Origin: an uncultured cyanobacterium
GTDB taxonomy: Bacteria; Cyanobacteriota; Cyanobacteriia; Cyanobacteriales; Cyanobacteriaceae
DNA length: 64,000 bases
NCBI GenBank assembly: GCA_963749915.1
Contig: CAVVOP010000021.1
Location: forward strand, 128,001 to 192,000
Direction: 5' to 3'
Every line of letters begins with the position of its first letter. Positions within the stretch are counted from its first letter, which is position 1. The position numbers and the translations under genes were made by a program. Positions 33,120-52,823 of the stretch are shown here, piece after piece. The notes under the pieces were generated by a model that did no database searches, had not been told where the DNA came from, and saw nothing but the letters and a program-made list of their open reading frames with translations.

Positions 33120-33159
33120 GGTACGGTTCCTCTATTGCTTCTATTTGAAATGCTACGGG

Positions 33160-33681: not shown

Positions 33682-33999
33682 CTAGCTCTTCTGGCTGCAT
33701 GGATTTCCATCTGTCAACTGAATTACCCCCGCACCTTTGTATTTTGGGCCATCTCCAGGGTGAGTATTGCCCAAATCTTTTCGGCCGTTGTAGGCTGAAC
33801 CATCAGCTAGTTCTTTCAACCATTTCAAGCCACCGCTTTCATGGGCAGTCTGGCTAAGGAAATGACGCATCCTGGCCGGGGTGTTAATTTGGAAACGATT
33901 CAAACAGTCTTTGAGGTCTTTGAGTTGATGGGGTTGGATGGCACGACCGTATATAGCCTCTGCCTGAGCCTTGGAAATCAATTCCCCACCTCCAGGCAA
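33682..33999 (-). pseudogene. Glycoside hydrolase family 19 (lysozyme/chitinase-like) fragment
   Basis: [47 protein letters not shown]; similarity ends abruptly before the expected GR.NY. Confidence 0.78.
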
Positions 34000-34066
34000 T
34001 TCCTACAGTTAAGAGTGCGAGGGTTAGTATTTCTCCTTTTTTCCTTTCCACCCCTACAGGCTAATT

Positions 34067-34828
34067 TCACCTGCGTTCGTCTTGAATAATTACCTCTGGC
34101 TTAGTTTCGGGGGGGACATCTGTTTTTGGCGGTTGATCTGGCAACGGGTTGACAATTGATGCGGTATCCCTTACGAGGTTGATCTCAAAGCATGGGCTTA
34201 GAGACGCAAATTCAGCGATTTTCTTAAATGATTCCTGATTTTCGTCGTTCAGAAATCCATTCGTTTTTAACCAATAGCACTGCTCGATCAAAACGAGTTG
34301 GGCATTTCGGTGGCTGTTTTCGTTGTCGAGCCGCTGGCGCTCCAGTCTCCCCGTGGCGAAGTCCTTACAGAATTGGCTAAGATTACCGCCGAATGGCACT
34401 GATATGCCAAGCGCCACTCCGTATTGATTGTTGTTCGAGCTGTTCAATAGATATGGCTCATTAAGAGTTGCTCTGTCATTGCCAGTCCCGACAAAACCGC
34501 CTATACTGAAGCTCGGAGAAGGACAGTCAACAGTAGTATCAATCTTGTAGTTATTATTGAGATTAGGAATTGCAGGATTTATATTAAGCCCGGCGGCCCT
34601 GCCATAGGTATAGGACTGAGCCATGCCAGGTGCAGCTGACCCTAAGCATAGGGTGAGAGGTAGGCACATATGCAAGGTGAAGCGTCCTAATGATGATCGC
34701 TTGCGGGAAACGGTACGAGATTTAGACATGGTTATGAGTGGGTTAAGTGACATGGGATTAAGCGAAATTGGGTAGGTAAACTCTAACTCTGCTCTGTGAG
34801 GAAAATTAGAGTTTAAGATGTTTGCCAC
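34067..34828 (-). CDS. Secreted hypothetical protein (start probably ~34730)
   Basis: Signal peptide LPLTLCLGSAAPGMA, beta-strand-like YGVALGISVPF, several Cys. Confidence 0.55.
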   Translation of the reverse strand: MANILNSNFPHRAELEFTYPISLNPMSLNPLITMSKSRTVSRKRSSLGRFTLHMCLPLTLCLGSAAPGMAQSYTYGRAAGLNINPAIPNLNNNYKIDTTVDCPSPSFSIGGFVGTGNDRATLNEPYLLNSSNNNQYGVALGISVPFGGNLSQFCKDFATGRLERQRLDNENSHRNAQLVLIEQCYWLKTNGFLNDENQESFKKIAEFASLSPCFEINLVRDTASIVNPLPDQPPKTDVPPETKPEVIIQDERR

Positions 34829-35087: not shown

Positions 35088-35126
35088 TTTGTCTAGCTCC
35101 TATATGCGTTGTATTGTTTCATCTTT

Positions 35127-35225
35127 TTGAACATCAAGTTCGACTTCTTTGAACCTGATATATTTAGTAAAACCTACTGCTAACTGAGTTCAAACCTGAG
35201 ATTTACTGACTTGTTTCTAACTTGT
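35127..35225 (-). promoter_or_regulatory. 99-bp non-coding module, left copy (inverted relative to 49714-49812)
   Basis: Reverse complement aligns to 49714-49812 without gaps, 8 mismatches; rich in AAGTC/AAGTT and TTGAAC/GTTCAA motifs. Confidence 0.75.
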
Positions 35226-35295
35226 GACTCCTTTTGTTCTGACTTTTACTTTGGTTATGACTTTGATGCTGTAGAATTTAGACAGTTGTGATGAG

Positions 35296-36603
35296 GTGCT
35301 TATGCCCAGATCCCTCAAAGTTAAAAGTAATTGCCTTGACAAAGTCAAACTGGCCCTCAGACGTAATGGCTTTCCCAGCCAACGCTCTTTGGCGGAGGAG
35401 GTAGGATATGCTCTAGCCACAGTCAGTAATTTCCTAACTGGTAAACCTGTTGACTATACAACTTTTACAGAACTCTGTCACAGATTGGCTCTGGAGTGGA
35501 AAGAAATCGCCGATCTAAATTTTGAGGTTTCATCCCCCACTAGAGATAAAAAGGCTGAATCCTCTGATTGGACAGATGCCAACCAGAACAAGTCTCCTTG
35601 CTACCCTAGTGGTTCAGTCCCGCTAGATTCTCCTTTTTATCTAGAACGCCCTTCTATTGAGGAAGAAATTTGTCAAGAAATCACGAAACCAGCATCCTTA
35701 GTACGGATTAAAGCACCGAGGGAAATGGGCAAGACTTCACTGCTGTTGAGGATTCTGGACTATGCTCAACACCAGGGCTACCGAACTGTCAGCCTGAACC
35801 TGGAACAAGTTGACCAGTCTATCTTGAAAGATTCGGATAAATTTTTACGCTGGCTGTGTACCAACATTGCCCACCAGCTTCAACTACAAGCGAGGCTAGA
35901 CGAGTATTGGGATGAAGATCTGGGGAGCAAAATTAGCTCCACTCTCTACCTCCAAGGCTATCTACTAGAGCAAATTGATACTCCCCTCGTCTTGGCGTTA
36001 GATGAGGTGAACCAGATTTTCGAGCATTCCCCAGTGGCGAAGGATTTTTTACCTCTGTTGCGTTCTTGGTACGAAGAAGGGAAAAGACTGGACATCTGGA
36101 AAAAGCTCCGCCTGATTGTGGTTCACTCGACGGAAATTTACGTTCCCCTTCAGTTAAATCAGTCACCCTTCAATGTGGGACTGCCAGTTCAGTTAAACCA
36201 CTTCAGTCTGGATGAGGTAGAGCAATTAGCCCAACGCTACGAAATCGAATGGGTAGATGCCTCCGAAGCCAGACAACTAATGGATCTCGTTGGAGGACAT
36301 CCCGCACTGGTGCATACAGCACTCTATCACCTGAGTCATGGGGAGATAAATCTGTCGCAACTGCTGGAAACTGCCCCTACAACTACAGGAATTTATTCTC
36401 ATCACTTGCAGCGCCATAGGGTAACTTTAGAAAAAGAACCGGAATTAGCCAGTGCCCTTCATACTGTCATGAATGCCACTGAGCCAGTGGAATTAGAACT
36501 GAACGCTGCTTATAAGTTAAATAGTATGGGGCTAATTAAACAGTTAGGGAATAAAGCGATCACAGGTTGTGAGTTGTATCGTCAGTATTTTAAGAACCCT
36601 TAA
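35296..36603 (+). CDS. N-terminal HTH + AAA_35 (STAND-like) ATPase, putative transcription regulator
   Basis: HTH SQRSLAEEVGYALATVSNFLTGKPVD; GSVPLDSPFYLERP, KAPREMGKTS (Walker A), LALDEV (Walker B), SPFNVG. Confidence 0.88.
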   Translation: MLMPRSLKVKSNCLDKVKLALRRNGFPSQRSLAEEVGYALATVSNFLTGKPVDYTTFTELCHRLALEWKEIADLNFEVSSPTRDKKAESSDWTDANQNKSPCYPSGSVPLDSPFYLERPSIEEEICQEITKPASLVRIKAPREMGKTSLLLRILDYAQHQGYRTVSLNLEQVDQSILKDSDKFLRWLCTNIAHQLQLQARLDEYWDEDLGSKISSTLYLQGYLLEQIDTPLVLALDEVNQIFEHSPVAKDFLPLLRSWYEEGKRLDIWKKLRLIVVHSTEIYVPLQLNQSPFNVGLPVQLNHFSLDEVEQLAQRYEIEWVDASEARQLMDLVGGHPALVHTALYHLSHGEINLSQLLETAPTTTGIYSHHLQRHRVTLEKEPELASALHTVMNATEPVELELNAAYKLNSMGLIKQLGNKAITGCELYRQYFKNP

Positions 36604-36642
36604 GTACAATTTTAGTTTTGAATTACAAAAGTTAATAAAGTA

Positions 36643-36758
36643 AGTGCTACTGATCTTGTAGAATCAGATTCTATCTGGGATTAAAAGTTGAGCAGTCTAG
36701 AGCTGATTAAAAATAAGGAAATGAAGCGATCGCAGGTTGTGAATTGTATCGGCAGTTT
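36643..36758 (+). pseudogene. Decayed duplicate of the AAA_35 gene 3' end
   Basis: AAGCGATCGCAGGTTGTGAATTGTATCGGCAGT closely matches AAGCGATCACAGGTTGTGAGTTGTATCGTCAGT at the end of the upstream gene. Confidence 0.6.
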
Positions 36759-36801
36759 GACCTAAAAGAATAACTAACTAGAGTGGGGTTTTGAGATTGA
36801 C

Positions 36802-39085
36802 GTGATTAAAAAGCCACGATTAAAAAATAGCTTCCGTTTTGAACAACTCGATTCAGAAGGTATCTTTTTACTGTCTGAAAAAGGAACAACATTCCTAAGC
36901 AATCCTTTGTTGCAAAAGTTGATCCCCTTGATTGATGGCAAGCTCACTGAGTCAGAAATTGTTGACCAACTCCGCCAGGAATTTCCAGAGGCTTATATTT
37001 TTTATGCTCTTATGGAGCTGGAGCAAAATGGGTTTATCGTTGAGAACGAGCAAGTTTTAGACCCGAACTTCGCTTTATTTTGCGAGTCTTTGTCTGTTGA
37101 TGCCAAAGATGCTTGTAAGCAATTGCAATCTACTCGAGTTGGACTTAGAGCTTTGGGGTCTTTATCCTGCGAGAATTTGAAAGAAAGTTTAGGGCGATCG
37201 CAGAATCCAGGTTGCTGATAGTGGAGAGGGAGAGATTGAAGTTATTTTAACGGACGACTATTTGCGAGGAGAATTAGAAGCAATTAATCGGGCTAATCTC
37301 GAAAAATCTCGGTCGTGGATGTTGGTTAAACCCGTCGGGACTTCCCTTTGGCTCACGATCTTCAATCCCGAGAAAACTGGATGTTGGGAATGTTTAGCAC
37401 AGCGATTGCGAAACAATAGACCCTCAGAAAGATTTATCCAGCGACGCAGAGATAGCGTTTCCCCTTTAACGCCACCCCAGGTTGATCTACCGACAACTCA
37501 ACAAACGGCTGTGGCAATGGCGACCAATGAAATTCTCAAATGGATTCTCCTAGGAACAAATAAACGACTGGAAGGGGTAATTGTAACCTATGACACCCTA
37601 TCTCTAGCAATTCAAAATCACGTCCTCATCAAACGTCCTCAATGTTCCTATTGTGGATACCTCAAACCTCAGCACGCCCCCCTTGAGGCATTCGCTGTGC
37701 GACCTCGCCCTTTACCAGTCATTCTCGGCAGCCGTCAGAAAAGGTTTACCAGCGATGGCGGACATCGTTGTATTTCCCCCGAGGAAACCCTAAAACGCTA
37801 TCAATACCATATCAGTCCCCTATCGGGCGTTGTGCGTTCTTTGGAAAAGCTGCCTGACGATTGTAAAGGTCTGGCTCATATCTATACGGCCAAGCATCAT
37901 TGGGCCTGCATGTTTGACGATTTAGATAATTTGCAAAAAAATATTGGCGGGAGAAGTTCTGGCAAAGGCAGAACGGAGTTTCAAGGCCAAGCCAGTGCTT
38001 TTTGTGAAGCGATCGAGCGCTACTCCGGTATTTTTCAAGGCGATGAAGTGAAGATCGAGAGTAGCTACCACCAGCTCGGCGATCGGGCAATTCATCCCAA
38101 TGCTTGCATGCACTTCAGTGAGGCTCAATATGACAATCGAGAGCCATGGAATGCCCAACATGCCGATCTGTTTCAGAAAGTCCCGGATCCTTTTGATCAA
38201 GCCAGAGAAATTGAGTGGACTCCACTTTGGTCTTTAACCCAGCAAGAGTTTAAATATTTACCCACAGCCTATTGTTTTTTTGGCTATCCCAAGCCAGTCA
38301 ATCCTGACTGTTGGGCGAATACCAATGGCTGTGCTGCAGGGAACACTCTGGAAGAGGCAATTTTACACGGTTTTTTGGAATTGGTGGAGCGAGATAGCGT
38401 GGCCTTGTGGTGGTACAATCGCCTTCAAAAGCCGAGAGTCGATTTAGAGAGCTTTGACGAAACTTATTTTCAAGCCATAACCAACTATTATCAGTCCATT
38501 GGGCGAGAACTTTGGGTGATCGATCTAACTGCGGATCTTAATATTCCGACGTTTGCCGCCATTTCTCGGCGGCGAGATCGCCAGGTAGAAGATATTATTT
38601 TCGGGTTTGGCGCTCATTTGGACTCCAAGTTAGCCATACAAAGAGCACTAACAGAAATCAGTCAAGTGCTTCCAGCAGTTTTTAGTGCGAATCCTGACGG
38701 TACGACTCGATATGCGATTTCGGCTGGATCTCATGTATTACAATGGTGGAAAACGGCAACATTAGAAAACCACCCTTACTTAGTCCCAGATCTCCGCGTT
38801 CCCCCTAAATGTAACTCTGACTATGGGAGTGTCTGGCATGAGGATTTCTTAGAAGATATAAAATACTGTCAGCAACTGGTGGAAGAAAAGGGCATGGAAA
38901 TGCTCGTTCTCGACCAAACGCGCCCCGATATCGGTCTAAATGTCGTTAAAGTCGTCGTGCCAGGTTTACGACATTTCTGGAAGCGGTGGGGTGCGGGACG
39001 GCTTTATAATGTTCCCGTCCAAATGGGTTGGCTTGAGAAACCCTTGACGGAGGAAGAAATGAACCCAATTCCGCTGTGGATGTAA
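36802..39085 (+). pseudogene. TOMM-type fused leader-binding/E1-like + YcaO cyclodehydratase (~760 aa), one +1 frameshift near 37204
   Basis: Removing one A in CAGAATCCAG joins the two ORFs (..RSQIQVADSGEGEIEVILTDDYL..). Motifs: TGCWECLAQRL, SDGGHR, SGKG..Q..ASAFCEAIERYSG, NGCAAGNTLEEAILHGFLELVERD, Pro-rich end NPIPLWM. Confidence 0.9.
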
Positions 39086-39245
39086 TAATTAGGGCGAGGT
39101 CGCTTCGCTCGTCCCCCAAGCACGGCGTATTGGGTTGAAATTAAAGACAAGGGCGATATTGATTCAACCAATGAACTTGCCCTAAGCAATCCTCTGATTG
39201 AGTCTATAAAATTGAACGGAACTCAAATTTTTAAAGCGAAACCAA

Positions 39246-39282
39246 ATATATCATTGACGATATATATTTTTTATGTTAGGTT
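39246..39282 (+). promoter_or_regulatory. TA promoter with operator palindrome
   Basis: TTGACG-17 nt-TAGGTT with TGn extension; ATATATC-N6-GATATAT straddles the -35. Confidence 0.55.
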
Positions 39283-39288
39283 TACATC

Positions 39289-39648
39289 ATGAGTTGGATA
39301 GTAGAATTTCACCCATCATTCAAAGAAGAGTTCAAGATGTTTTCAGAAAACGTCCAAGATGCTCTTTTAGAAGACTTGGAAGTTCTCGAAGAATTTGGAC
39401 CACATCTTGGTCGTCCGGCAGTTGATACACTTAAAAACTCTAAGCATAGTAATATGAAAGAGCTTAGATTCAATGCTGATGATGGAGTATGGAGAATGGC
39501 TTTTGCCTTCAATCCAGAAAGGAAAGCTATCTTATTAGTTGCAGGAGATAAATCAGGAACAAGTAGTCAAAGGTTTTATAAACAGCTTATCAAAAAGGCT
39601 GACCAGCGGTTTGAAGACCACTTGCAAAGATTAAAGGAGAACAAATAA
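39289..39648 (+). CDS. RelE/HigB-like toxin (Gp49/DUF891 type)
   Basis: GPHLGRPAVDTLKNSKHSNMKELRF, AILLVAGDKSG. Confidence 0.88.
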   Translation: MSWIVEFHPSFKEEFKMFSENVQDALLEDLEVLEEFGPHLGRPAVDTLKNSKHSNMKELRFNADDGVWRMAFAFNPERKAILLVAGDKSGTSSQRFYKQLIKKADQRFEDHLQRLKENK

Positions 39649-40004
39649 TGAGCAAAGGACCATTATTACAAGATGTTTGGGACGCACTACCTGAAGAGAG
39701 AAAAGCGAAAATTAAGGCTCGTGCCAAGACAAAGATACAAACGTATAGAAACTTAGAAGCTATCAGAAAAGCTGCCGGATTAACGCAAGCCAAAATCGCA
39801 CAAGAATTAGATATGCCTCAAGGGAATGTTTCTCGCTTGGAAAAAAACTCTGATATGCTTTTGTCAACGCTTCAACGATATATAGAAGCCGCTGGTGGCA
39901 AATTAAATCTAACAGTAGAATTACCGGGCAAACCCCCTATCCCTCTTTCAGGTTTGGGAGACTTAATTGAGAATGGTGATGGGGTAAAGCATCCCCATTT
40001 ATAA
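39648..40004 (+). CDS. XRE-family HTH antitoxin
   Basis: IRKAAGLTQAKIAQELDMPQGNVSRLEK..DMLLSTLQRYIEA; start overlaps the toxin stop. Confidence 0.88.
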   Translation: MSKGPLLQDVWDALPEERKAKIKARAKTKIQTYRNLEAIRKAAGLTQAKIAQELDMPQGNVSRLEKNSDMLLSTLQRYIEAAGGKLNLTVELPGKPPIPLSGLGDLIENGDGVKHPHL

Positions 40005-40071
40005 GTTTGCTAACTTGATTCAGAGAAATCACCTTATGAACTCATTCCACTAATCATTTTAGAAATTTCCC

Positions 40072-41154
40072 ATGCTAAACGGCTATAAAATCATTGATGC
40101 AGACTCCCATGTTTACGAACCTCATTCTCTGTGGACAACCTATCTTGAACCTGCATTTCGCCATTTGGCTCCCACTCGGGATCTAAAAATTCAAGGGGAA
40201 TCGGTGATGAACAAATCTTCCCAAATGCTTATTGATGAGGGCGTTAAGCAGGTTAAGCGATCGCACCCTCTCTCTTTTGTCCAAGAATTTAACTCGGAAT
40301 CTCAAGTGCAAGCGATGTACCGGATGGGAGTCGATATTGCCTTTGTTTATCCGACCTACCTCTCATGGATTACCGGTGTCGATGCTATGCCTGCCCCACA
40401 AGTCGGGGCTTATATCCGGGCCTACAATAGTTGGCTGTACGACTTTTGCAGCTATAACCCAGCCATCTTAAAAGGGGTCGGGGTCGTTAATCTACACGCC
40501 CCCGAAGAAATGATTCCCGAATTGCGACGCATTGCAAGTTTTGGCTGGAAAGCTGTTTATTTACGCCCCAATCCCGTCAAGGGAAGGTTGCTCAACGATC
40601 CGGCTTACGAACTGTTTTGGACAGAATGCGAGAAACTTGATATCGCTGTCAGTCTCCACGAGACAACCCACAGCCGAGTTCCCAGTGCAGGAGCCGATCG
40701 CTTTTCCTCTCGTTTTGCCCTCCACGCCTGTTCTCACCCCATGGAACAGATGATGGCATTACTGGCACTCATTGAAGGGGGAGTTTTGGAAAGACATCCT
40801 CAACTCAGGGTAGGATTTCTAGAGTCGGGGTGCGGTTGGTTGCCTTACTGGTTGTGGAGACTCGATCGCGAGTACGAAGACTTACAGTGGGAGGTGGGTG
40901 ATCGTGTCAAGATGAAACCGTCAGATTATTTTCGCCGCCAGTGCTTTATTGCTGTGGAACCATCGGAAACTTATCTTCCCAAACTGTTAGAGGAACTCGG
41001 TGCAGATAATCTTATCTTTGGTTCCGATTATCCCCACATGGATCATAAACCAAATGTTGTTGACGATATGGTGGCACTGGAAGAAGAATTATCTAAACCA
41101 GTTCTCCAGAAAATCCTCTGGGATAATCCCAAGAGATTCTATGGTTTGGAATAA
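40072..41154 (+). CDS. Amidohydrolase family 2 metal-dependent hydrolase/decarboxylase
   Basis: IIDADSHVYEP, LH, GVLERHPQLRVGFLESGCGWLP, IFGSDYPH. Confidence 0.9.
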   Translation: MLNGYKIIDADSHVYEPHSLWTTYLEPAFRHLAPTRDLKIQGESVMNKSSQMLIDEGVKQVKRSHPLSFVQEFNSESQVQAMYRMGVDIAFVYPTYLSWITGVDAMPAPQVGAYIRAYNSWLYDFCSYNPAILKGVGVVNLHAPEEMIPELRRIASFGWKAVYLRPNPVKGRLLNDPAYELFWTECEKLDIAVSLHETTHSRVPSAGADRFSSRFALHACSHPMEQMMALLALIEGGVLERHPQLRVGFLESGCGWLPYWLWRLDREYEDLQWEVGDRVKMKPSDYFRRQCFIAVEPSETYLPKLLEELGADNLIFGSDYPHMDHKPNVVDDMVALEEELSKPVLQKILWDNPKRFYGLE

Positions 41155-41302
41155 CTTGTATTTTACCATTTGCATCAACGCCCCCTGAACTCTGAACCCT
41201 GAACTCCAAACTATTGTAATAGTTCTTAATATAGTTCCGATTTCTAACTGATAGACTAAATATTATTATAGAAAATATAAATTTAGGAGTAAATTAAATG
41301 CA

Positions 41303-42885
41303 ATGAAGCATGGTAACGAAAGCTTTTAAATTGAAGGTGGATTAATTGATGCCCCGTTGTTCCCCGAAGTGTTATTTCATGGGGAGAATGGACGTAGTGG
41401 GGTCATTCCCCGTGACCTCAAACCCAAGTCTGGCGAGCTACTTCCAAAGCCAACTCGCAAGTTTTGTCGGCTGTTTGAGAAAGGCGAGCAGCCATGTGCG
41501 GAAGGTTTGATCAAGCTAGGACTGAGCATGGAAACTGAAACAACCCAGGATTCTAACGATAATCAAAATACTGAGATCCCAGCAGGTTATACTTACTTGG
41601 GACAGTTCATTGATCATGACATCACACTAGACCGCAAAACTGAGCTCACAGTGAACGGAAATGTCGAGCCAGGTTGTATAGAAAACTTCCGTACTCCGAG
41701 TCTTGACCTAGACAGTCTCTACGGGAACGGGCCAGGTTGCGAAAACCAAAGTACTATACAACGATGACAAGAGAACCTTCAAATTGGCAAGACCAGCCCT
41801 GTTGAAAAGTACATTTAGGTAAAGGTGATCTTAGCACCCAAACGATTTGCCACGTCAAGGTGATGGTGCTGACTCTGGGAATCCAGAATATTATGTTGCG
41901 ATTATTGGTGACCATCGCAATGACGAAAATCTTGCCGTTGCGCAGACGCATCTGGCTTTTCTAAAATTTCACAATGCTCTCGCTGATGCTAAGATCCTGA
42001 CGAAATCTTTCGAGGAACTTCGTCGTGAAGTGACTCTGCACTATCAGGCTATTATTTTGACTGACTTCCTACCTAAAATTCTGGATCAGGAAGTTCTTAA
42101 TGATGTCTTGCAAAACGGACGAAAGTTCTATACTGATGACAAAAAAGATTGTATGCCAATCGAATTCTCAGTTGCAGCCCATCGGCTGGGACACAGTATG
42201 GTACGACCCAGCTATCAATGGAATAGGATACATAATGAAGCCACTTTGAAAGAACTCTTCGAGTTTTCTGGAGGAAGTGGTTCCAGAGGTCCAGAAGATA
42301 AACCGTTTGCGGATCGCGACACGTTACCATCAGATTGGATTATCAACTGGAAACTATTCTATGACCTCAGTGAAGTAGGTAAAGACTGTGATGAACAGTT
42401 GAATTACGCCCGTAAGCTAGACACTAACATAGCAGTGCAATTGAAAAAATTACCAGAATTCCAAAAGATGGCCGAGAAAGTCCCAGCTCCTCTCCTCTCA
42501 TTGGCAACTCGTAATCTACTACGAGGTCGACTTGTCTCTTTACCGAGTGGGCAGGAAGTCGCCGCAGCAGTGGGAGAAACTGCTTTAACCCCAGAGGAAA
42601 TTCTGAAGAAACGTGACAGAAGATCAAGCCAAAATTCTAAAAGACAAAGACCATGATTTCGATGAAGTCACACCATTGTGGTACTACATTTTGCGAGAAG
42701 CTATGGTACAAGCCAACGGTAATCATTTGGGGAAAGTGGGTAGCCGCATCGTAGCTGAAACTTTTGTAGGCTTGATTGAAAACAGTCCTATCAATGTTAG
42801 GAGTGAACGGCCAGCCCTATCTTTTTCCATGCGTGAGTTGCTAATGGAACTCCCGTATAAAGATATCAATCCATTAGGTTGCTAA
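41303..42885 (+). pseudogene. Peroxidase-cyclooxygenase (animal heme peroxidase) superfamily protein, multiply disrupted
   Basis: YTYLGQFIDHDIT, LDLDSLYG, IGDHRNDENL.VAQTH, EFSVAAHRLGHSMVR, LPSGQEVA, TPLWYYILREA. Early stop at ~41327 and frameshifts at ~41745-41845 and ~42610. Confidence 0.85.
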
Positions 42886-42977
42886 AAGATTTTTGTGCTC
42901 TATAATTAAGCACATTGGATTGAAACATCATTCATACTCAGACTGACAAGAATTAAATTTTTCAAGGAGAATCTACG

Positions 42978-43673
42978 ATGTTTGATTTTTACCGTACTCT
43001 TCCTCCAAGGGAACTAATGAACCATTCCACCTGGGGCGTATTTAAAAATTTTGGCGTTCAATATTCCAAACTCATGGCTTGGACATGGTTGAACATAGAT
43101 TTGGAGAACCAACAAGATGAGCAAAAATTGAGAAAAGGGTTCGTTCGCCTCCTTCAAAAGCAAGCCACGAATGCACAGGCTTATAGTAAGTGTCAGACTC
43201 CACCAGATGTACTAGATAAGGCAAAGGAAGCTTCTAAGAATATTAAACAGTTGCTCCTTGGTAAAAAAATAGAAACATCTGATATAGAAACATCTGATGA
43301 AAAAATCATCGAGCTAGCACAAATCGATCTAACCTTGTCAGAGGTTCTTCGAAAGTACACTGAACAACCTCTTATGACATCCTCCGATGGGGACGAGCAT
43401 GTACACAAAATGTTTGATGAAATGTTTAATGTGCAAGTAATTACCGATTCATTTGTTGGTAGCATTATTTATGCACCAGGCAAGGATTCAACCAGTGAAG
43501 ATAAAGATAAGTATATCATAGAACTTGCTGCTCCACCTCGTCCTGTATCCAGTGAAGATCCTTTTGCTTTGGTGTCAAATCAAGTGTTAGAAACCTGGAT
43601 TAATACACCCGATGACAAGCCCATCAAGTATGCAGGGCCTCCTTCTGCTTATATTCCGTGGTCGGCAAGCTGA
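42978..43673 (+). CDS. Hypothetical protein; candidate large NHLP/BMA_0021-like RiPP precursor
   Basis: AAGGAG RBS; YSKLMAWTW, PPRP, C-terminal GPPSAYIPWSAS; 15-bp tandem duplication (IETSD)x2 at 43269-43298. Confidence 0.55.
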   Translation: MFDFYRTLPPRELMNHSTWGVFKNFGVQYSKLMAWTWLNIDLENQQDEQKLRKGFVRLLQKQATNAQAYSKCQTPPDVLDKAKEASKNIKQLLLGKKIETSDIETSDEKIIELAQIDLTLSEVLRKYTEQPLMTSSDGDEHVHKMFDEMFNVQVITDSFVGSIIYAPGKDSTSEDKDKYIIELAAPPRPVSSEDPFALVSNQVLETWINTPDDKPIKYAGPPSAYIPWSAS

Positions 43674-43787
43674 ATACGATCGCCAGACTCTCTTGAAGAG
43701 AATCGCTTTCTGACTTTAGAGATACGTGCATCATCGCCTCTCAAATTTGAGAAATGTATCAGGTTAAGATGTCTCGAAATATTGAAA

Positions 43788-43828
43788 AACCTTTCGGATA
43801 TTATTCAATGCCCGAAAGGTTATTTTTA
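43788..43828 (+). terminator. Probable intrinsic terminator after 42978-43673
   Basis: AACCTTTCGG...CCGAAAGGTT stem followed by ATTTTTA. Confidence 0.65.
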
Positions 43829-43884
43829 TCTATAATTTTGTAAGCATCTCTTGAGAAATTTAATCTACAATAGATGATGAGTTT

Positions 43885-46800
43885 GTGAAGCAGGATAGCA
43901 AACGCAAATGGGATAGTAGGATGAGTACGATCTTTGATTATCAAATTGTCACAAAAATTTACGAAAGCCCCAACTCCTTAGTTTATCGGGCTCTACCCTG
44001 TACTGATGAGCGTTCCGTAATTCTTAAAGTTCTCAAGAAAGATTATCCAAACCCGTCAGAGCTGACACGCTACAAACAAGAATACGAAATTACTCGCTCT
44101 CTCAAACTCGAAGGCGCGATCTCGGCTTCCGATCTATTTCCTTACGAAAATAGCCTCGCAATCGTTCTGGAAGATTTTGGGGCTCAATCTTTAGATATTT
44201 GGCTCAAATCTCGGGTTTTTACAATTTTAGAATTCTTGCAAATTGCCATACAAATTGCAGAAGCATTGGCTGGAATTCATGGGGCGAATATTATTCACAA
44301 AGATATTAATCCTTCGAACATTCTTTTTAATCCCAAAACTAGACAAGTAAAAATTATTGATTTTGGCATTTCTAGCATTTTTACGAAAGAAGCGCCTGTT
44401 CTGAAAAATCCCGATATTTTAGAAGGAACATTGGCCTATATGTCCCCAGAACAGACGGGAAGAATGAATCGTTCGCTTGACTATAGGACGGATTTTTATT
44501 CCTTGGGGGCAACGTTTTATACCATCTTGACCGAGCGACTGGTTTTTGAGGCTCGCGATGCGCTAGAGCTAGTTCACTGTCATATCGCCCGCGAACCCAC
44601 CCCTCCCCATGAAATTAACCCCTCTATCCCAGAAATCCTCTCTCGCATCGTGATGAAACTGCTTGCGAAAACAGCCGAGGAACGTTATCAAAGTGCCTTG
44701 GGTTTAAAGGTAGATTTAGAAGAATGCTTCGCACAGCTACAACAAACTGGAAAGATCTTAGAATTTCCGCTCGCTTGCCACGATTTGACCGAGCAATTTC
44801 AAATTCCGCAGAAACTTTACGGGCGAGAACCAGAGATTGAGGTTTTGCTTTCATCCTTCCAAAGAATTGTCGAGCCAGAAAACCAAGAACAGCCTCATGA
44901 GGGAGACAAAACAACGGGAGTTGATGCCCATCGAAAACGAGCTGAAGTCGCCCTTGTCGGCGGCTATTCCGGTATTGGTAAAACTTCCCTCATTCGGGAA
45001 CTCTACAAGCCTATCACCCAACAGCACGGCTACTTTATTGCGGGTAAATTCGACCAGTTTCAGCGCAATATTCCCTATTCGGCGGTCGTTGCAGCCTTCC
45101 AATCCCTCGCACGACAATTGCTTTCTGAAAGCCCGGCCCGGCTGGCTCAATGGCGCGAAAAATTGATCGCTTCTTTTGGCTCGAACGGTCAAGTCATCAT
45201 TGATGTTATTCCCGAGATTCAGCAAATCGTCGGGCCTCAGCCTCCCGTGCCGCCCATGGAACCCTCAGAGGCAAAAAACCGATTTAATCGTGTTTTCCAG
45301 AATTTTGTCCGAGTTTTTTGTCAGCGATCGCACCCTCTAGTCATTTTTCTAGACGATTTGCAATGGGCAGATTCGGCGAGCTTGCAGCTAATCGAACTAA
45401 TAATGACAGACAGCCAAATGGAGCATCTGCTTTTGCTCGGTGCCTATCGGGACAATGAGGTCAATCCCCATCATCCTGCCATGCTGTGGGTGGAGCGATT
45501 GAAAGAGCAGAATCAGATCGTTAACAGCATTATCCTCAAACCGCTTGAGCTTGAAGAAGTCGCTCAACTCCTTGCAGATGCATTCTATAGCGATCGAGAA
45601 ACCGTGCAAGCTTTAGCCAATTTAGTTTTGCAAAAGACTTCAGGGAATCCCTTCTTTATTAATGAATTTTTGAGAACGATCTACCAAACAAATCTATTAA
45701 CTCTCGATCGGAACCTTAGGTGTTGGCAGTGGGACGTAGATCGGATTCGAGCTGCAGACATTACAGATAATGTAGTGGACTTAATGCTAGGCAAGCTCAA
45801 AAAACTGATGCAGAAGACACAGATCGTACTTCGTCTAGCGGCCTGTGTTGGCAACCGCTTCGATCTCGGCACGCTCTCTATTATTTACGAAAAGCCTGCT
45901 GTTGAAGTTTTCAAAGAGCTTTTGCCTGCAATTCAGATGGGTTTCGTTCAGCCGACATCAGAGCTGGAAACGACCTCGGAAGATCCCATTGAATCTGACC
46001 TAGTCATTCAGGATTATGTATTTCGACACGATCGTATTCAACAGGCTGCTTACGCACTCATCGATCCCGATCAAAGGAAGGCAATTCACTTGCAAATTGG
46101 CAGATTATTAGTTACCAGTCTTGGGGAAAGCGAGCGAGAAGAGCAAATATTTACCTTGGTCGATCATCTCAATAAAGGAATAGACCTAGTCTCCGAAATA
46201 GACGAAAAAATAAAGCTAGTGGAGCTGAACTTGTATGCTGCGAAGAAGGCTAAAGAAGCAGTAGCCTACATGGCGGCTAGAGAATATTTAACTGTGGTGA
46301 GCAACGAATTCCCGGGAGAGATTTGGGAAGATCGCTACGACATGGCAATCGATCTTTACAGAGAACTTGCCGAAGTTGAATATCTTAACGGTGACTTCGA
46401 GAAATCCCAATCTCTAATTTCAATGTCTCTCGATCGAGTGCAAACGGATCTCGATAGCATAAGGTTTTACTTATTGAAAATCACGGTAAATGTTATGTTA
46501 GGACGCTACGTAGAAGCTCTTGCAGTGGGTCGAACTGCTTTGAAAATGCTAGGAACTGACTTACCCGATCAAGACCTTTCCTCAGCATTCGAGACGGAAC
46601 TTGTCAAGTGTAGAGAGGCTTTAGGCGATCGAGAAATCGACACTTTATACGATAATCCTGAAATGAGTTCTCCGAGAAAAGAAGCAGAGTTTGAACTCTT
46701 ATATAGGATGCTTCCTACTGCTTGGTCTACAGACCCAAAGTTAATAAATGTTGTAATCAGTAAAATAGCGAATATCAATATTGAATACGGACATACACCA

Positions 46801-49662
46801 TTCTCTCCATTAGCCTATGTTTTCTTTGGTATAATCAACAATCACGCTCTTGGCGAATATCATGTGGGTTCCCAATATAGCTCCCTTGCTTTGAGATTAT
46901 CTGATAAGTATGGAAATTTACAGTCTAAGGGAGTTGTGTTGTCTTATAGCGCGAATATGATAATGCTTTGGCTTCGACATATCAAGGATTCTGAGAAGGT
47001 TAACAACGAAGGCTTTAATTTTTGTTTGGAAGCTGGAGATATAGAATTTGCTGGATACTCATCTGTCTATAACCTATATAATTTAATTTATCAGGGGAAA
47101 AACTTGGAAATTCTTCTGAAAGAGGTGTCTCTCGGCCTGCAATTTAGTCAAAAGATCCAAAATCAATGGACTATTGATTGTCTGCTTGCTGCTAGGATTA
47201 TCATCAAAAATTTGCTTGGTGAAACCCCCAATAAGCACAGTTTCAATCTTGAAGAAGTTACTGAAGAGAATTTTATAGAAGCTTGCGGCAGCGAAAGAAC
47301 CCCAGCAGCACTTTGTTTTTATCAGATATTTAAAGCCCAAGTGCTTTACTTGTACGAACAACCCGCTCCATTAGCCTTATTAGAAGAATCAGCTAAATTA
47401 TTTGGCTACATTCCAGCAACGATATCAATTGCCAAGCATAATTTTTATTATTCGCTAACCCTGATTGCCCATTATCCAGAATCATCACTAGCAGAACAAC
47501 AAGAATACAGGCAACAATTAGAAACCAATCAAAAACAGATGAAAACGTGGGCAGATAACTGCGAGGCCAACTTCTTGCACAAATATCTCCTCGTCGCCGC
47601 AGAAATGGCTCGTATTTCTGACCAATGGACAGAAGCAATGGAACTCTACGATCGCGCCATTGAGTCCGGCAAAGAACACGAATTCATCCAAAACGAAGCA
47701 TTAGGCAACGAACTAGCCGCCAAATTCTGGCTGGCACGAGGGAAAGAAGACTTTGCCAAACTCTATATGAGAAAAGCACGTCAAGGCTATCAGCTCTGGG
47801 GCGCAAAACGTAAAGTCGAAGACTTAGAAGAAAGGTATCCACAATGGTTTACCTCGCAATCCTACGAGTCTGACGACGTAACCACAACTTCCACGGGACG
47901 AACTGCCAAGTCCTTAGACATTGAAACCGTTATTAAAGCCTCAGAAACCCTATCCAAAGAAATTGTCTTAAAAAACTTACTCGCCAAGTTGATGAAAATC
48001 GCCATTGAAAATGCAGGCGCACAAAAAGGTTTCTTGATTTTAGAGAAAGAAGAAAATTGGTTCATTGAAGCCGAAGGCAATGTCGATGAGAGTAAGACAA
48101 AATTATTACAATCCATTCCGATTGAAACTAAAGAAACAACAGAACCCCCTTTACTTTGCTCAGCCATTGTCAATTATGTTGCTCGCGCTAAAAAGAACAT
48201 TATTTTAGACGATGCTTGCCATGAAGGAGACTTTACCAACGACCCTTATATCCTCTCAACCCAAGCCAAATCCATCCTCTGCATCCCCTTAGTACACCAA
48301 AGTCACGTTAGCGGCATTCTCTACCTCGAAAATAACCTCAGCACCAACGCTTTTACCAGCGATCGCCTTGAACTCCTCAACATCCTTTCCAGTCAGGCGG
48401 CGATTTTGATCGAAAACTCCCGCCTCTACCAGACTCTAGAGCAAAAAGTCGAAGAACGCACCCTAGAACTCTCCCAAACCCTGGATATTCTCAAAGCCAC
48501 CCAAGCCGAACTGCTCTTTGAAAACGAGCTACTCAGAAGTACCGAAGAACCCTCCACCTTTGACTATCAAGTAGGTGGGAGCTTGCCCATGGATGCCCCC
48601 ACTTATGTAGTGCGCTCCGCAGACCGCTACCTCTACAAAGCCTTGAAGCGCGGGGAGTTTGGCTACGTCCTCAATCCCCGCCAAATGGGTAAATCCAGCC
48701 TGATGGTACGCATGATGTATCACCTCCAGCACGAGGGAGTAAGCTGTGCGGCGATTGATATGACTCGCATTGGCAGTGAAAACGTTACTCCTGACCAATG
48801 GTACAAGGGATTGGCATTCGAGCTATGGCGAAGTTTTGGTTTGCTAGGGAAGGTCAATCTCAAAGCTTGGTGGCAAGAGCGAGAAGATATTTCGACCGTT
48901 CAGCGGTTGAGTCAATTTATCGAAGAAGTGCTGCTGGTTGAAGTCGGCGGAGAAGATGGCACTCCCTCAAAACAACTGGTAATTCTTATCGATGAAATTG
49001 ATAGCGTCTTGGGTTTAGATTTCCCGATTAATGACTTTTTTGCCCTGATTCGCTCCTGCTACAACCAGCGCAGTCTCAATCCCGAGTATCGGCGTTTAAC
49101 CTTTGCTTTCTTTGGTGTCGCCACCCCCTCGGATTTAATTACCGACAACCAGACCACCCCTTTTAACATCGGTCAGGCTATTCAACTAGAGGGCTTTAAA
49201 GAGCATGAAGCCCAACCTTTACTGCAAGGATTAGCAGAGAAAGTGAGCAACCCGCAAACGGTGCTCAAAGAAGTCTTGGCCTGGACGAGTGGCCAGCCTT
49301 TTCTTACCCAAAAGCTCTGTAAGCTGATCCGCACTGCCTCTTCTCCTATTCCCCAGGGCGATGAAGCCGACTGGATTGAGAATTTAGTCCAAACTCAGAT
49401 AATCAAAAATTGGGAATCCCAGGATGAGCCAGAACATTTGCGAACCATCCGAGATCGCCTCCTCAGAAGCCAACAATCTGTTGAGCTACTAGAACTCTAC
49501 CGACAAATCTTACATCAGGGAGAAGTTGTCGCCACCGACAGTCCAGAAGAAAAGGAATTGCTCTTATCGGGGCTGGTGGTCAAGCAACAGGGGTCTCCCA
49601 AAGTCCATAACCGCATTTATGAATTAATCTTCGACCGCAGTTGGGTTGAGCAGCACATCTAA
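43885..49662 (+). CDS. Ser/Thr kinase - AAA ATPase - helical repeats - GAF - C-terminal AAA_35 multidomain sensor (start 43885 or 43921)
   Basis: [63 protein letters not shown]; then [33 protein letters not shown] instead of a His-kinase. Confidence 0.92.
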
Positions 49663-49672
49663 GGGCAACGGG

Positions 49673-49812
49673 AGTCAGAAACAAGTCAGTCAATCTCAAG
49701 CTTGAACTCAGTTACAAGTCAGAAACAAGTTAGTCAATCTCAAGTTTGAACTCAGTTACCAGTAGGTTTTACTGAATATATCAGGTTCAAACAAGTAGAA
49801 CTTGATGTTCAA
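49673..49812 (+). promoter_or_regulatory. Right copy of the 99-bp module (49714-49812) with a 44-bp tandem duplication (49673-49760)
   Basis: AGTCAGAAACAAGTYAGTCAATCTCAAGYTTGAACTCAGTTAC twice; inverted homolog at 35127-35225. Confidence 0.75.
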
Positions 49813-49840
49813 CAAATTCAAACTTGGAGACCTTTTTCTG

Positions 49841-50158
49841 ATGAACAGAACTAGATTGAATCAGCTATCTCAGAAGCTATCTGACTTGCAAGCAGCTTGT
49901 CAAGGAAAATTTTCTCTGGATAGTGAAACTGAAGCGGTATTTCAAGAGTTAGCAGCAGAAATTGCCAGCCATCATCAGCATCATGTTTGTGAACAAGATA
50001 ATCAATTGCTGTATCTGGAAATTTTGCGCTACTTCCATCAGATTCATACTTTCCTTGATAATCAGCTTTCCTCGGGTGAATTGCCAAAGATGGCTGAGGA
50101 ATTATTGGAGATTGTCTCCTGTCAGGAATTTGAAAAGATCGCCCAATATTTTGTCTAA
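49841..50158 (+). CDS. Small helical hypothetical protein
   Basis: GGAG upstream of ATG 49841 (ORF open from 49802); HHQHH motif. Confidence 0.55.
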   Translation: MNRTRLNQLSQKLSDLQAACQGKFSLDSETEAVFQELAAEIASHHQHHVCEQDNQLLYLEILRYFHQIHTFLDNQLSSGELPKMAEELLEIVSCQEFEKIAQYFV

Positions 50159-50243
50159 TCAGGATTTGTTAATTGTTACTTCAAATCAGCTTCAAACAAG
50201 TCCAATCTGAGGTTCAACCAAACTCAATCACAGGAGAAATCAA

Positions 50244-50420
50244 ATGCAATTAATCGAGAAATCTCACCCACAAGCTGAATTAAAGACCGTTAACTCACCC
50301 AGTAAACTGCCCCGGCGTAAGTTATCTGCCCAATGGAAAGTTGTTGAAGGAAAACTTCGTTGTTTTTGGGTAGCTGAAAATACATCTAATACATTTAATA
50401 CATCTAATCACAATCACTAA
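50244..50420 (+). CDS. 58-aa small protein not in the ORF track
   Basis: AGGAG RBS; MQLIEKSHPQ...RRKLSAQWKVVEGKLRCFW...; the KLxAxWxVVxGKLxCxW motif resembles small cyanobacterial proteins. Confidence 0.6.
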   Translation: MQLIEKSHPQAELKTVNSPSKLPRRKLSAQWKVVEGKLRCFWVAENTSNTFNTSNHNH

Positions 50421-50432
50421 GGAGAGAAGACC

Positions 50433-50687
50433 ATGGAACTTTGTTATCGCGGAGTGAGCTACGGTTATGAACCACCAGTTGTGGCAACAACAGTTGGGGA
50501 AGTTGGCGGCAAGTATCGGGGTCTAAATTGGCAATTACGTAACTTGAAGAACCCACCAGTGCTGCGGTCGACAGATAACCTGACTTATCGGGGTGTTAAG
50601 TATAATAAGCCTGGCACAATTACCGCAAGAACAATTGAGCCTGAGACGACACTGACTATATCTACTGAACAAAAAGCTTGCTTGTAA
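50433..50687 (+). CDS. DUF4278-like small protein
   Basis: Repeated L.YRGV.Y / GKYRG motifs; AAGGAG RBS. Confidence 0.75.
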   Translation: MELCYRGVSYGYEPPVVATTVGEVGGKYRGLNWQLRNLKNPPVLRSTDNLTYRGVKYNKPGTITARTIEPETTLTISTEQKACL

Positions 50688-50723: not shown

Positions 50724-52823
50724 CCCACATTCCGCACGTCAAACTGTATAAATTCAGATTACGAGGTTAGAGGTTGAACAGTGATTGACTACGACAAGAA
50801 ATACTCGGTGATTAGTTCTCTAGCTTATAAAGAGAACTCAGATAAATTAGTAGAAAAATGAGCAACGTTTAAGGGATAATTAAATTCAGTTTTTAATTTA
50901 ATTTTGGAAATGATACTTTCAGAAGATATACAAGTTCAAACCATTAATCATTTAGGATTAATTGCTGGAGTTATAGATGAAATTGGCATTGAAGAAATTA
51001 TTAATGATGCCCTCGGTATTGACGAGAGGGAAATCGTGACAGCAGGTCAAATAGTCAAAGCAATTATTCTGAACGGATTAGGATTTATTTCTCGACCTCT
51101 TTATCTATTTCCACAGTTTTTTAAAGACAAAGCCACAGAACATTTAATCGGAAAAGGAATACTACCTGAGCATTTGAACGATGATAGAATTGGAAGAATA
51201 ATGGATAAACTTTATGAAAAAGGATTATCTTCATTATTTTTAATTATTGCTTTAGCCACAGTAAAAAAATATAATATCAACATAGATTTTTCTCATTTAG
51301 ATTCAACTTCTTTTGCGGTAGAGGGGAAATATAGTCAGGAAAAAATCACCAAAAATTTGGTCAAAGAAAATGCAGAATTAGAGTTAATTAATCAAATTCC
51401 AATTAAGATAATTAAAGGTTATTCCCGTGACCATAGACCAGATTTAAAACAATTTATTTTGGATTTAATTGTGAGTGGTGATGGTGATATTCCACTATTT
51501 TTAAGAGTAGCAGATGGTAATGAAAATGATAGAGCAGTTTTCGGCAAAATAGCGAAAGAATACAAATCAATGATAGATTTTGAGACGATGATAGTGGGTG
51601 ATAGTGCCTTATATACAGAAAATAACCTGAAATTAATGAGTGGAATAGAATGGTTATCGAGAGTTCCACTATCAATAAAAGAGGCAAAAAATTTAGTTTC
51701 AGAACTATCAGAATCTGATTTGACTCCAAGTAGTTTAGAAGGATATTCATGGTGTGAAGTAAGGAATAATTATGCAGAAATTGAGCAAAGATGGTTAATA
51801 GTAGAAAGTGAAAAAAGAAAAGTATCAGAGCTAGAAAAACTAAGGGAAAAAATAGAGAAAGAAAAAGAAAAAACCGAAGAAATATTAAAGAAATTGATGA
51901 AAGAAGAATTTAGCTCATCAGAGGGAGCTTATGAAACAGTTGTGAGACTAAATAAGACTTTAAAATATCATCACATAACCGAGCTAAAAATGACAGAAAG
52001 TGAGTTAAATAATCACAAGAAAAAATCGAAAAAGAAAGAAGAAAAATCGGGAAAAACTTATCAAGTTACGGCTATTTTGAAATCAGATTTAACGAAAATA
52101 AACGAATCAAAAAAAAGAGCAGGAAGATTTGTGTTAGCTACAAATAGATTGGATAAAAGTAAATTTAATTCTGATGAAATTTTAATTAAGTATAAAGAGC
52201 AACAAGCCGCAGAAAGAGGTTTTAGTTTTCTGAAAGAGCCATTATTTTTTGCCGATAGTGTGTTTTTAAAAACCCCAAAAAGAATCGAAACAATGGCAAT
52301 GTGTTTTTGGGGTTATGTCTGTTAGTCTATTCTTTGGGGCAAAGAGAAGTGCGTCGCTTATTAGAGGAGAGAAAAACGGGGATAAAAAATCAGCTGGGAA
52401 AACTAACGGAACGTCCAACGTTAAGATGGATATTTCAATGTTTTCAGGGGATTCATTTAGTAATAAATCAAGGAATAAAACAGATAGTAAATCTAACAAA
52501 TGAACGAAAACTAATTTTAAGTTTTTTCCCGATTTCTTGTCATAATTATTATATTTTATCTGGATAACTTATGGGATTTAAGAGTCTAAACATTCTCAAT
52601 TATAATACCATAAATAAAGAAGAGAAAACTGATAGATTTGCTCTGTTTATTTATTCTCATTAAAGGTGAAGTTATTGACAATGAGATTTTAATTTGAGCA
52701 AAGTTCGCGAGTACAAAACGCGAATAAAGAAGATATTGAGTATTATTACTTATATTTTGTCCAAAATAAGTTGCTTGGTTTTAATACTTTTATCATCTTA
52801 CAAAGTGAAGTACGGAATGTGGG
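50724..52823 (+). mobile_element. IS1634-family element, copy 2 (transposase frameshifted near 52300)
   Basis: Near-identical to 25606-27703 and in the same orientation; right TIR has 2 substitutions (TGAAGTACGGAATGTGGG); +2 indel splits ORFs 50904-52325 and 52301-52567. Confidence 0.93.

Follow-up and report, generated by a model that had tools for sequence, protein, structure and literature searches.

The closest described relatives of the gene block analysed here are the NHLP-Burk clusters of the thiazole/oxazole-modified microcins (TOMMs), which combine TIGR03795 precursors, a fused cyclodehydratase recognized by TIGR03882 and TIGR03604 and a large Ser/Thr kinase, TIGR03903; no characterized product is given for them in the part of that account covered here (PMC2887384, Haft, Basu & Mitchell 2010). 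We examined a related block in a 64,000-nucleotide stretch of DNA from an uncultured cyanobacterium of the Cyanobacteriaceae (contig CAVVOP010000021.1), hereafter called the window, whose positions are used throughout. The block encodes a YcaO cyclodehydratase, a 231-aa putative precursor, an 'amidohydrolase' that we reassign as a predicted diiron oxygenase, a large kinase and a helix-turn-helix (HTH) regulator, the last two sharing an AAA_35 domain, and it lies between two homologous non-coding modules. The cassette is real and conserved, and it is a variant of a known but uncharacterized kind. The layer that is new here consists of the predicted operator, its tie to one HTH clade and the co-variation of the output domain of the kinase.

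The oxygenase brings in a second group of described enzymes. The amidohydrolase-related dinuclear oxygenases (AROs), among which LynB7 and DolJ are counted, are defined by the motifs D-x-H and D-x-P-H-x-D/E, which are reported to be absent from all characterized PF04909 hydrolases and decarboxylases, in the covered part of PMC13154177. With Fe(II) and O2, LynB7 converts thiazoline-4-carboxylic acids into thiazoles and requires the free 4-carboxylate; its tested substrates were thiazolines, its metal-site residues are D11, H13, H197, E252, D320, H323 and D325, and it is 14% identical to PurAH (PMC10127204, part covered). In the portions of these papers covered, 'YcaO' and 'RiPP' (a peptide made by the ribosome and modified after translation) do not occur in PMC13154177, nor 'RiPP' in PMC10127204, in which the bottromycin pathway is named; likewise, 'YcaO' and 'AAA_35' are absent from PMC7159879, and the words 'kinase', 'hydrolase' and 'peroxidase' from PMC4603692. 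The open-access literature, outside which lie most subscription journals and the bioRxiv supplements, yielded no description of a YcaO-ARO pathway or of AAA_35 regulators.

The cassette and its conservation

The gene block is decayed in this genome, yet widespread among cyanobacterial relatives. An earlier note, made from the letters of the window, had listed an HTH-AAA_35 gene, a YcaO gene, an amidohydrolase, a peroxidase, a 231-aa open reading frame (ORF) and a kinase-GAF-AAA_35 gene. We confirmed each of them, and all the named genes of the block (35296-49662) are co-oriented on the plus strand (Table 1). The list left out a HigB/HigA-type pair between the YcaO gene and the 'amidohydrolase' gene, which is outside the conserved core. 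The partial decay noticed earlier was borne out as well. Compared with an intact orthologue of 86% identity, the YcaO reading frame carries a +1 frameshift near 37204; the peroxidase gene is a pseudogene, and in the left flanking operon the second DO-GTPase gene is frameshifted at its Walker A motif and the endolysin-like gene is truncated. The extra base of the YcaO gene is absent from one environmental contig (depth 3) that otherwise differs by one base, so this lesion is strain-specific or an assembly error.

A search of the 301 genomes from this order detected the oxygenase in 73, nearly always adjoining a YcaO gene. From the top of about 90 places listed, we fetched 60 oxygenase loci not previously collected, in stretches of at most 20 kb, some of them cut by contig ends. 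YcaO was present in 54 of these loci, the kinase in 47, a precursor homologue in 41 and all three in 32. Together with 15 loci found through the precursor, and after five named loci had been dropped as duplicates, they make up 75 systems, with YcaO in 66, the oxygenase in 73, the kinase in 60 and the precursor in 56. This conserved co-occurrence in the neighbourhoods of cyanobacterial loci agrees with the earlier proposal of one system as opposed to a chance assembly. Precursor relatives were found in 6 of 101 related genomes, including that of the window, and 11 precursor loci were found in the genome collection, under record titles such as Microcoleus, Desertifilum, Crinalium and Argonema.

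Predicted chemistry at the precursor C terminus

By both models, the fused YcaO protein is a putative azoline-forming fused TOMM cyclodehydratase, with scores above the curated cut-offs (282 versus 219 bits for TIGR03604 and 148 versus 37 bits for TIGR03882). The view that the 231-aa protein is its likely substrate, already put forward from the sequence of the window, is supported by a bias in the C-terminal tails and by the co-occurrence with YcaO. The precursor family is unnamed and comprises 136 clusters at 50% identity, for which no RiPP-precursor match was found in NCBIfam. A C-terminal [YFWH][IVL][PA]x3-6 motif is present in 109 of the 136 members, and 102 of these 109 tails end in Ser (39), Cys (38) or Thr (25), residues that together make up 14% of the precursor bodies. 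The loci yielded 65 precursors, and 57 of them have one of these three residues at the end, compared with 20% of the 935 ORFs there.

The model of the precursor is well folded (pLDDT 93), and its tail is included at high confidence. With this model, Foldseek found no match at E 0.001 and the best VIA-align hit had a Z-score of 4.0, which is no clear match; this outcome shows neither a new fold nor an absence of kinship. A search of the ESM Atlas gave only leads under 0.9. The sole PDB match of the family profile was an NHLP leader, 8tb1, with a weak E value of 0.46, and short precursors of sister loci scored up to 49.8 bits against TIGR03793, the cut-off being 50.9. These sequence matches suggest a weak but consistent kinship with NHLP leaders. 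At E 0.01, TIGR03795 matched neither the 231-aa protein nor its 136 relatives, and one short precursor of a sister locus reached 21 bits, below the 41-bit cut-off. There is no Gly-Gly cleavage site in the precursor alignments, and no peptidase-ABC exporter is encoded in the window. Six loci form a subtype (L096, L102, L111, L122, L123 and L189) in which tandem precursors of 107-122 aa ending in LLRVS, ILRVC or MRQS accompany a divergent DyP-like gene; this layout is closer to that of the NHLP-Burk pairs.

The identification of the PF04909 protein as an amidohydrolase had to be revised. The protein harbours D11-S-H13 and D319-Y-P-H322-M-D324, corresponding to the two ARO motifs, and its seven diiron residues each occupy the LynB7 position or the one before, as judged by comparing the listed positions. 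Its best match in the PDB is the diiron monooxygenase PtmU3 (E 1e-33), and other dinuclear oxygenases are also among its best solved relatives. It shares 57% identity (77% positives) with a 360-aa protein of genome G587 whose gene sits behind genes for a 2887-aa non-ribosomal peptide synthetase (NRPS; C-A-MT-PCP-C-A-PCP-TE) and a 504-aa MT-ACP protein; these sizes equal those of BarH and BarF in Table S2 of PMC10127204, as far as covered. Homologues at 67-72% identity carry the name 'BarH protein'. Thus, the features that mark the LynB7/BarH subfamily, namely identity to an NRPS-linked terminal-thiazole enzyme and the metal-site positions, were both found. Based on the motifs and the diiron residues, this protein is most likely a LynB7/BarH-type azoline-4-carboxylate oxidative decarboxylase. 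The motifs are kept in 73 of 73 (D-x-H) and 72 of 73 (D-x-P-H-x-D/E) full-length ORFs, a few of which were counted twice in overlapping fetches. In the tree of the oxygenases, the NRPS-linked copy falls among the YcaO-linked copies, with an open fork at its place that is compatible with either direction of recruitment.

Such an enzyme fits the predicted substrate, because cyclization of a C-terminal Ser, Thr or Cys would yield an azoline-4-carboxylate, the group that LynB7 requires. As this carboxylate must be free, only the C-terminal residue offers it. Oxidative decarboxylation to the azole by the diiron enzyme would also explain why the cassette has no SagB.

The peroxidase, regarded as a defining part in the earlier note, is of the short An_peroxidase type, with homologues of about 500 aa. 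None of the 75 genome loci has an An_peroxidase gene. One 2.3-kb metagenome contig (L145) does, and it has the gene order of the window: An_peroxidase (62-68% identity), a precursor ending in YIPWSAC and the kinase (81%), with the peroxidase gene as one unbroken ORF over the part covered by the contig. Because of this shared order, the peroxidase is a real accessory, although a rare one. Its candidacy as a core gene was rejected, as homologues are present in 25 of 300 other genomes, none of them near an oxygenase match. Three unrelated haem-type families occupy the accessory position among the loci, which hints at oxidative tailoring by the accessory gene. In the 75 systems, further genes code for a signal-peptide protein with a CxxCH motif (16 cases), DyP-like proteins (12), O-methyltransferases (5), prolyl oligopeptidases (5), radical SAM/SPASM proteins (4) and ThcOx (1). 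The CxxCH proteins (L007:14290-16074 and 14 homologues) have 470-590 residues, an N-terminal hydrophobic signal, a single C-terminal CxxCH and no Pfam family; their Atlas neighbours are unnamed Pseudomonadota clusters, and the nearest named one is a mannan-binding lectin cluster, at 0.91.

The gap behind the YcaO gene or the oxygenase gene has been invaded independently by toxin-antitoxin-type genes, with a HigBA-type pair here, a MazF pair between the YcaO and oxygenase genes of G075 and AbiEii in G046 (insertions elsewhere at L015:14339-15003 and L009:14019-14669).

Kinase, regulator and border modules

The kinase is a predicted cytoplasmic receptor, in which no hydrophobic membrane segment was found, and the HTH-AAA_35 protein is predicted to be both a transcription factor and the relay partner. 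The N-terminal 1500 residues of the kinase stay with the cassette, and its last domain is an AAA_35, His-kinase or PP2C domain. A second AAA_35 gene was present in the fetched stretch of 19 of the 29 loci whose kinase ends with AAA_35, versus 1 of the 25 loci with HisKA/HATPase or SpoIIE (PP2C); in G046, the His-kinase-type protein is followed by response regulators. Regulator-type and kinase-type AAA_35 domains share about 24% identity, and both types are fused in one gene at L020, L093 and L100. The predicted complex between the AAA_35 domain of the kinase and the regulator scored 0.59, versus 0.00 for the best of three controls (contact agreement between runs of at least 89%, partner pLDDT of at least 83), a value at which errors outnumber correct calls unless the pairing is likely beforehand. 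Among the reference pairs, 116 of the 157 solved ones and 2 of the 215 mismatched ones attained the mark used, and scores of 0.60 or less were obtained for 18 of the 157 and for both mismatches. The model of this complex lends weak support to a relay.

In G023, a regulator-type AAA_35 domain is joined to GGDEF instead of HTH (L007:12527-14188). The genome of the window (G000) has further kinase-type AAA_35 fragments at C8:552969-553394 and C17:17698-18402, as well as an intact kinase-AAA-GAF paralogue devoid of AAA_35 at C21:348307-352764.

The border modules are composed of AAGTCAG/ATCTCAG/AACTCAG boxes spaced 10-12 bp apart and followed by the element GGTTCAAA. Their homology and inverted arrangement, noticed earlier, stand; the length, then given as 99 bp, is 114 nt at 89% identity (35116-35229 and 49710-49823). 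Their inverted appearance arises from each being directed at a separate outward operon. In the 4.69-Mb genome, their only matches are each other (E 4e-36), a 48-nt truncated copy (27858-27905, E 2e-8) and a half copy (50185-50227, E 0.001), behind which lies a 58-aa ORF (50244-50420) absent from the list of the earlier note. Such few matches, all in the island, place the modules beyond chance and argue against a dispersed repeat. When ORF 49802-50158 is called from its earliest possible start, its initial codons fall within the right module. A non-coding RNA was rejected as a candidate, with no pairs in a 20-row consensus and no Rfam matches in 27000-52000, and the scan for sigma-70 promoters (31 vs 26.3) and terminators (13 vs 15.2) gave counts in line with chance.

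When two candidates per genome were scored, module homologues were detected in 15 of 300 other genomes. They are present in 11 of the 22 genomes that have the closest HTH, defined as 102 bits or more with a cut chosen after the list had been seen, versus 4 of the 278 others; with any HTH match counted, the proportions are 11 of 77 versus 4 of 223. In 10 of the 15 module genomes, a copy lies directly upstream of the HTH gene and points away from it. Two of those ten have the HTH fused to NB-ARC/NACHT and keep the module upstream (L157:1601-3106 and L164:3-1448), which indicates that the module follows the HTH and not the ATPase. Further copies stand ahead of distal genes in G062, G063, G069, G461 and G589. 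Among the genes downstream of modules are those for DUF4278 proteins and DO-GTPases in G062, MACPF in G063, a PatG-like protease in G069 and large proteins with Ig repeats in G589, as well as a di-haem peroxidase operon in G461, and genes related to the left operon of the window adjoin AAA_35 regulators in G514, G601 and G062. Genes divergent from the cassette match the pore-former families Bacillus_HBL and MACPF (L027:5409-6380; L177:525-1781).

Part of the earlier model, in which the AAA_35 pair controls a modified product and two flanking operons, can thus be retained, namely a regulatory unit with outward operons. The other part, control of the modified product by the pair, is less likely: the modules are aimed at the flanking operons and leave the YcaO genes aside, so that the modified product more probably feeds into the kinase.

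Table 1. Positions of the features in the window
Feature	Coordinates	Strand	Remarks
IS (insertion sequence) copies flanking the island	25606-27705 and 50724-52825		direct orientation; 98% identical to each other
Third, truncated copy of upstream boxes	27858-27905	+	between IS remnants
Left output operon	29760-34828	-	253-aa ORF, truncated endolysin/GH19-like gene (33682-33999), 77-aa membrane protein, two DO-GTPases, 358-aa membrane protein
Left operator/promoter module	35110-35263	-	predicted; points away from HTH gene, towards left operon
Left module boxes	35263, 35245, 35223, 35212, 35202, 35190	-	then conserved GGTTCAAA element
HTH-AAA_35 regulator, 435 aa	35296-36603	+	intact; AAA_35 E 3e-149; Walker A PREMGKTS at 141, Walker B LALDE at 233
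Fused RRE/E1-like-YcaO	36802-39085 (36802-37218 + 37193-39085)	+	TIGR03882 + TIGR03604; C-terminus PIPLWM
HigB/HigA-type pair	Gp49 39289-39648 + HTH_37 39648-40004	+	inserted between YcaO and oxygenase
Amidohydro_2-fold protein (PF04909)	40072-41154	+	intact; ARO diiron signature D11, H13, H196, E251, D319, H322, D324
An_peroxidase pseudogene	41303-42885	+	accessory slot upstream of precursor; in-frame stop near start, at least 2 frameshifts
231-aa folded NHLP-like protein	42978-43673	+	predicted substrate; ends PPSAYIPWSAS, predicted core = last four residues
Ser/Thr kinase-AAA_16(STAND)-TPR-GAF-AAA_35, 1925 aa	43885-49662	+	intact
Right operator/promoter module	49673-49823	+	predicted; 44-nt tandem duplication; points to right operon
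Right module boxes	49683, 49693, 49705, 49716, 49727, 49737, 49749	+	
Right output genes	49802-50687	+	118-aa ORF, half module 50185-50227, 58-aa ORF 50244-50420, DUF4278 50433-50687

Proposed mechanism, alternatives and known systems

We propose a chain that leads from tail capping through a receptor kinase and an AAA_35 relay to a regulon, and we give it an even chance of being correct as a whole. In the first step, as family knowledge suggests, the RRE/E1-YcaO protein would bind the NHLP-like body and cyclodehydrate Ser, Thr or Cys among the last four residues, turning the last one into an azoline-4-carboxylate (-18 Da). By analogy with LynB7, the diiron enzyme would then decarboxylate this group oxidatively and leave a terminal azole, with a loss of another 46 Da, giving an oxazole from Ser231 here and a thiazole in the relatives that end in Cys. 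This capping chemistry, predicted from the YcaO and oxygenase sequences, appears quite probable. The tail might be tailored further by the gene in the accessory slot, the peroxidase here and CxxCH, DyP-like, radical SAM or methyltransferase proteins elsewhere, a step that is speculative. The protein so capped, or else a short peptide released from it, may next stay inside the cell and act on the neighbouring kinase-STAND-TPR-GAF protein; this is suggested by linkage, and we hold it tentatively. As the co-variation, the fusions and the weak predicted complex suggest, the C-terminal AAA_35 domain of the kinase would pair with that of the regulator, taking the place held by His-kinase or PP2C domains in sister loci. 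Finally, given the co-distribution and position of the modules, the regulator would bind the phased AAGTCAG-like boxes and control the outward operons, which code for cell-wall, membrane and conflict-type proteins. We consider the relay and its operator moderately likely. Observed directly are the genes present and their conservation, the catalytic residues, the bias of the tails, the conservation and placement of the modules and the lesions of the YcaO gene, the peroxidase gene and the left operon. An extended circuit may also be imagined, with the azole-capped protein as the ligand of the cytoplasmic kinase-STAND protein, an AAA_35-AAA_35 heterodimer as the ATPase counterpart of the two-component phosphorelay, an HTH activator with a defined operator, a regulon that comprises genes of wall lysis, pore formation and conflict, and the BarH-type enzymes of NRPS pathways as recruits from this RiPP circuit; it is rather unlikely in this full form.

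Several observations weigh against the proposed chain. In seven of the 109 tails with the motif, the last residue is F, L or V, and the precursors of the DyP-linked subtype have R, L or T-free tails, e.g. ETIYSR, that cannot give a terminal azole. For a Ser-ending precursor such as that of the window, decarboxylation would act on an oxazoline, an extrapolation from the thiazolines of LynB7. In this strain, the copy probably makes no product, because its YcaO gene is frameshifted. The fetched stretches of 13 of the 60 oxygenase loci show no kinase. Five of the 15 module genomes have no adjacent HTH of this clade: in one the module precedes another AAA_35 regulator, in two there is no HTH beside it, and two have 24-nt matches that are probably due to chance. 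In G514 and G601, similar output genes lie beside an AAA_35 regulator with another N-terminus, with no module match. The Fisher values of 2e-6, 2e-11 and 1e-4 are overstated, since related genomes are not independent.

Two loci further show that the block is modular rather than self-contained, as had been thought at first, because they have the regulator-kinase pair with no intact YcaO cassette. L199 (10255-19999, G487) harbours HTH-AAA_35, a flavin amine-oxidoreductase, kinase-AAA_35 and a module, with no YcaO, oxygenase or precursor match within 20 kb, and in L195 (10487-20000, G069), two HTH-AAA_35 genes in tandem accompany the kinase and what remains of a YcaO gene, with three module copies that would drive small genes as well as one for a PatG-like S8 protease. 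Thus, the pair does not strictly need the capped protein. In L199, the flavin amine-oxidoreductase is a different enzyme in the synthase position.

The alternative that survives best, which we nevertheless regard as improbable, is that the product is a small azole metabolite, a peptide of 3-7 residues cut off by an unlinked protease, with the body serving as a large leader and the kinase sensing, in the manner of quorum sensing, a diffusible autoinducer or toxin. The NHLP-like leader motifs, the very short core rich in Ser, Thr and Cys and the swappable character of the synthase suggested by L199 would all suit such a metabolite, as would the prolyl oligopeptidase of 5 of the 75 loci, in keeping with the conserved Pro; moreover, the terminal thiazoles made by LynB7-type enzymes end small cyanobacterial metabolites (PMC10127204, part covered). 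However, the Gly-Gly site is missing, no protease or exporter is conserved (the oligopeptidase is missing from 70 of the 75 loci), the 231-residue precursor is modelled as folded with high confidence up to its tail, and the kinase has no detected membrane segment.

Less probable still is that the kinase-AAA_35/HTH-AAA_35 pair is an independent stress or immune sensor, for which the YcaO genes would be travelling cargo and not the input. The persistence of the pair in L195 and L199 would fit this view, AAA_35 pairs occur with other sensors (dCache-HAMP-AAA_35 in L015), and the outputs include MACPF, wall hydrolases and DO-GTPases, the last known from conflict systems (PMC7159879, part covered). 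Nevertheless, the YcaO, oxygenase and precursor genes adjoin the kinase even when its output domain is a His-kinase or PP2C, which argues for a link to the sensing half of the kinase and not to the AAA_35 relay, and the modules point away from the YcaO genes. A role of the Amidohydro_2 protein as a genuine hydrolase, which would open the azoline or set the core free in the manner of the bottromycin amidohydrolase, has very little likelihood. Its placement in PF04909 and the lack of any other releasing enzyme in the 75 loci speak for this role, but it carries the motifs reported to be absent from the characterized hydrolases and decarboxylases of the family (PMC13154177, part covered), and its 57% identity to the NRPS-linked copy contrasts with the 14% between LynB7 and PurAH.

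A chance assembly by IS elements, with the border repeats as transposon ends, is scarcely credible in spite of the deviating GC content, the same IS on both sides and the lack of matches in other genomes of the family, as the same genes co-occur across many families, the module is a single copy beside the HTH gene in other genomes and the IS has many genomic copies. The GC content of the island (0.437, versus 0.375 for the genome) and the lack of matches to the oxygenase, the module and the HTH in 16 other genomes of the same family point instead to its horizontal acquisition, which is likely. A composite transposon between the two flanking copies, of which the right one has a split transposase gene, is unsupported given the multicopy nature of this IS.

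If the proposed chain is true, it would provide the first RiPP role for LynB7/BarH enzymes. The predicted operator supplies a DNA target on which the AAA_35 regulators, a cyanobacterial family so far unstudied, can be tested, and provides a reporter for the function of the capped protein.

In MalT/LAL-type STAND activators, a DNA-binding domain is combined with a STAND-like ATPase, and the target boxes are phased direct repeats on one face of the helix. The system described here shares a DNA-binding domain on a STAND-like ATPase and several phased direct-repeat boxes; in contrast, its HTH is N-terminal and its regulator has no sensor domain, so that sensing would occur in trans through the AAA_35 domain of the kinase. 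The DNA motif is co-distributed with the HTH gene and adjacent to it, and binding itself is predicted. In bottromycin biosynthesis, a YcaO enzyme acts together with a true amidohydrolase and an oxidative decarboxylase of the P450 type, and a follower peptide is used. Both pathways would place a YcaO azoline at the eventual C terminus and then decarboxylate it oxidatively to a terminal azole, but here the native C terminus would be used and a diiron enzyme is predicted to carry out the oxidation.

As in the DO-GTPase conflict systems (PMC7159879, Kaur et al. 2020, part covered), the left operon has two paralogous DO-GTPase genes followed by a membrane protein gene, with the differences that the 358-aa product has no GAP1 family match and that the genes lie downstream of a predicted operator. 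The diiron enzyme shares its fold, length and seven metal-site residues with LynB7, BarH and DolJ; the known members act on NRPS products, whereas the enzyme analysed here belongs to a ribosomal YcaO pathway in which many predicted substrates are oxazolines (PMC10127204, PMC13154177 and PMC10811679, parts covered).

Compared with the NHLP-Burk clusters, the precursor is single, of 231 aa and without a TIGR03795 match, and the kinase has GAF and AAA_35 domains instead of a cyclase domain, with 139 bits against TIGR03903 (cut-off 706). The diiron oxygenase, the HTH-AAA_35 partner and the operator boxes are additions with respect to the covered part of PMC2887384, in which 'amidohydrolase' does not occur. 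For a RiPP relative of these clusters, open since 2010, our analyses yield a mass prediction, -18 and then -46 Da at the C terminus. Both kinds of loci share the fused cyclodehydratase, a precursor, here a putative member of the NHLP clan, with no Gly-Gly site, a short tail that often ends in Cys and an adjacent large kinase.

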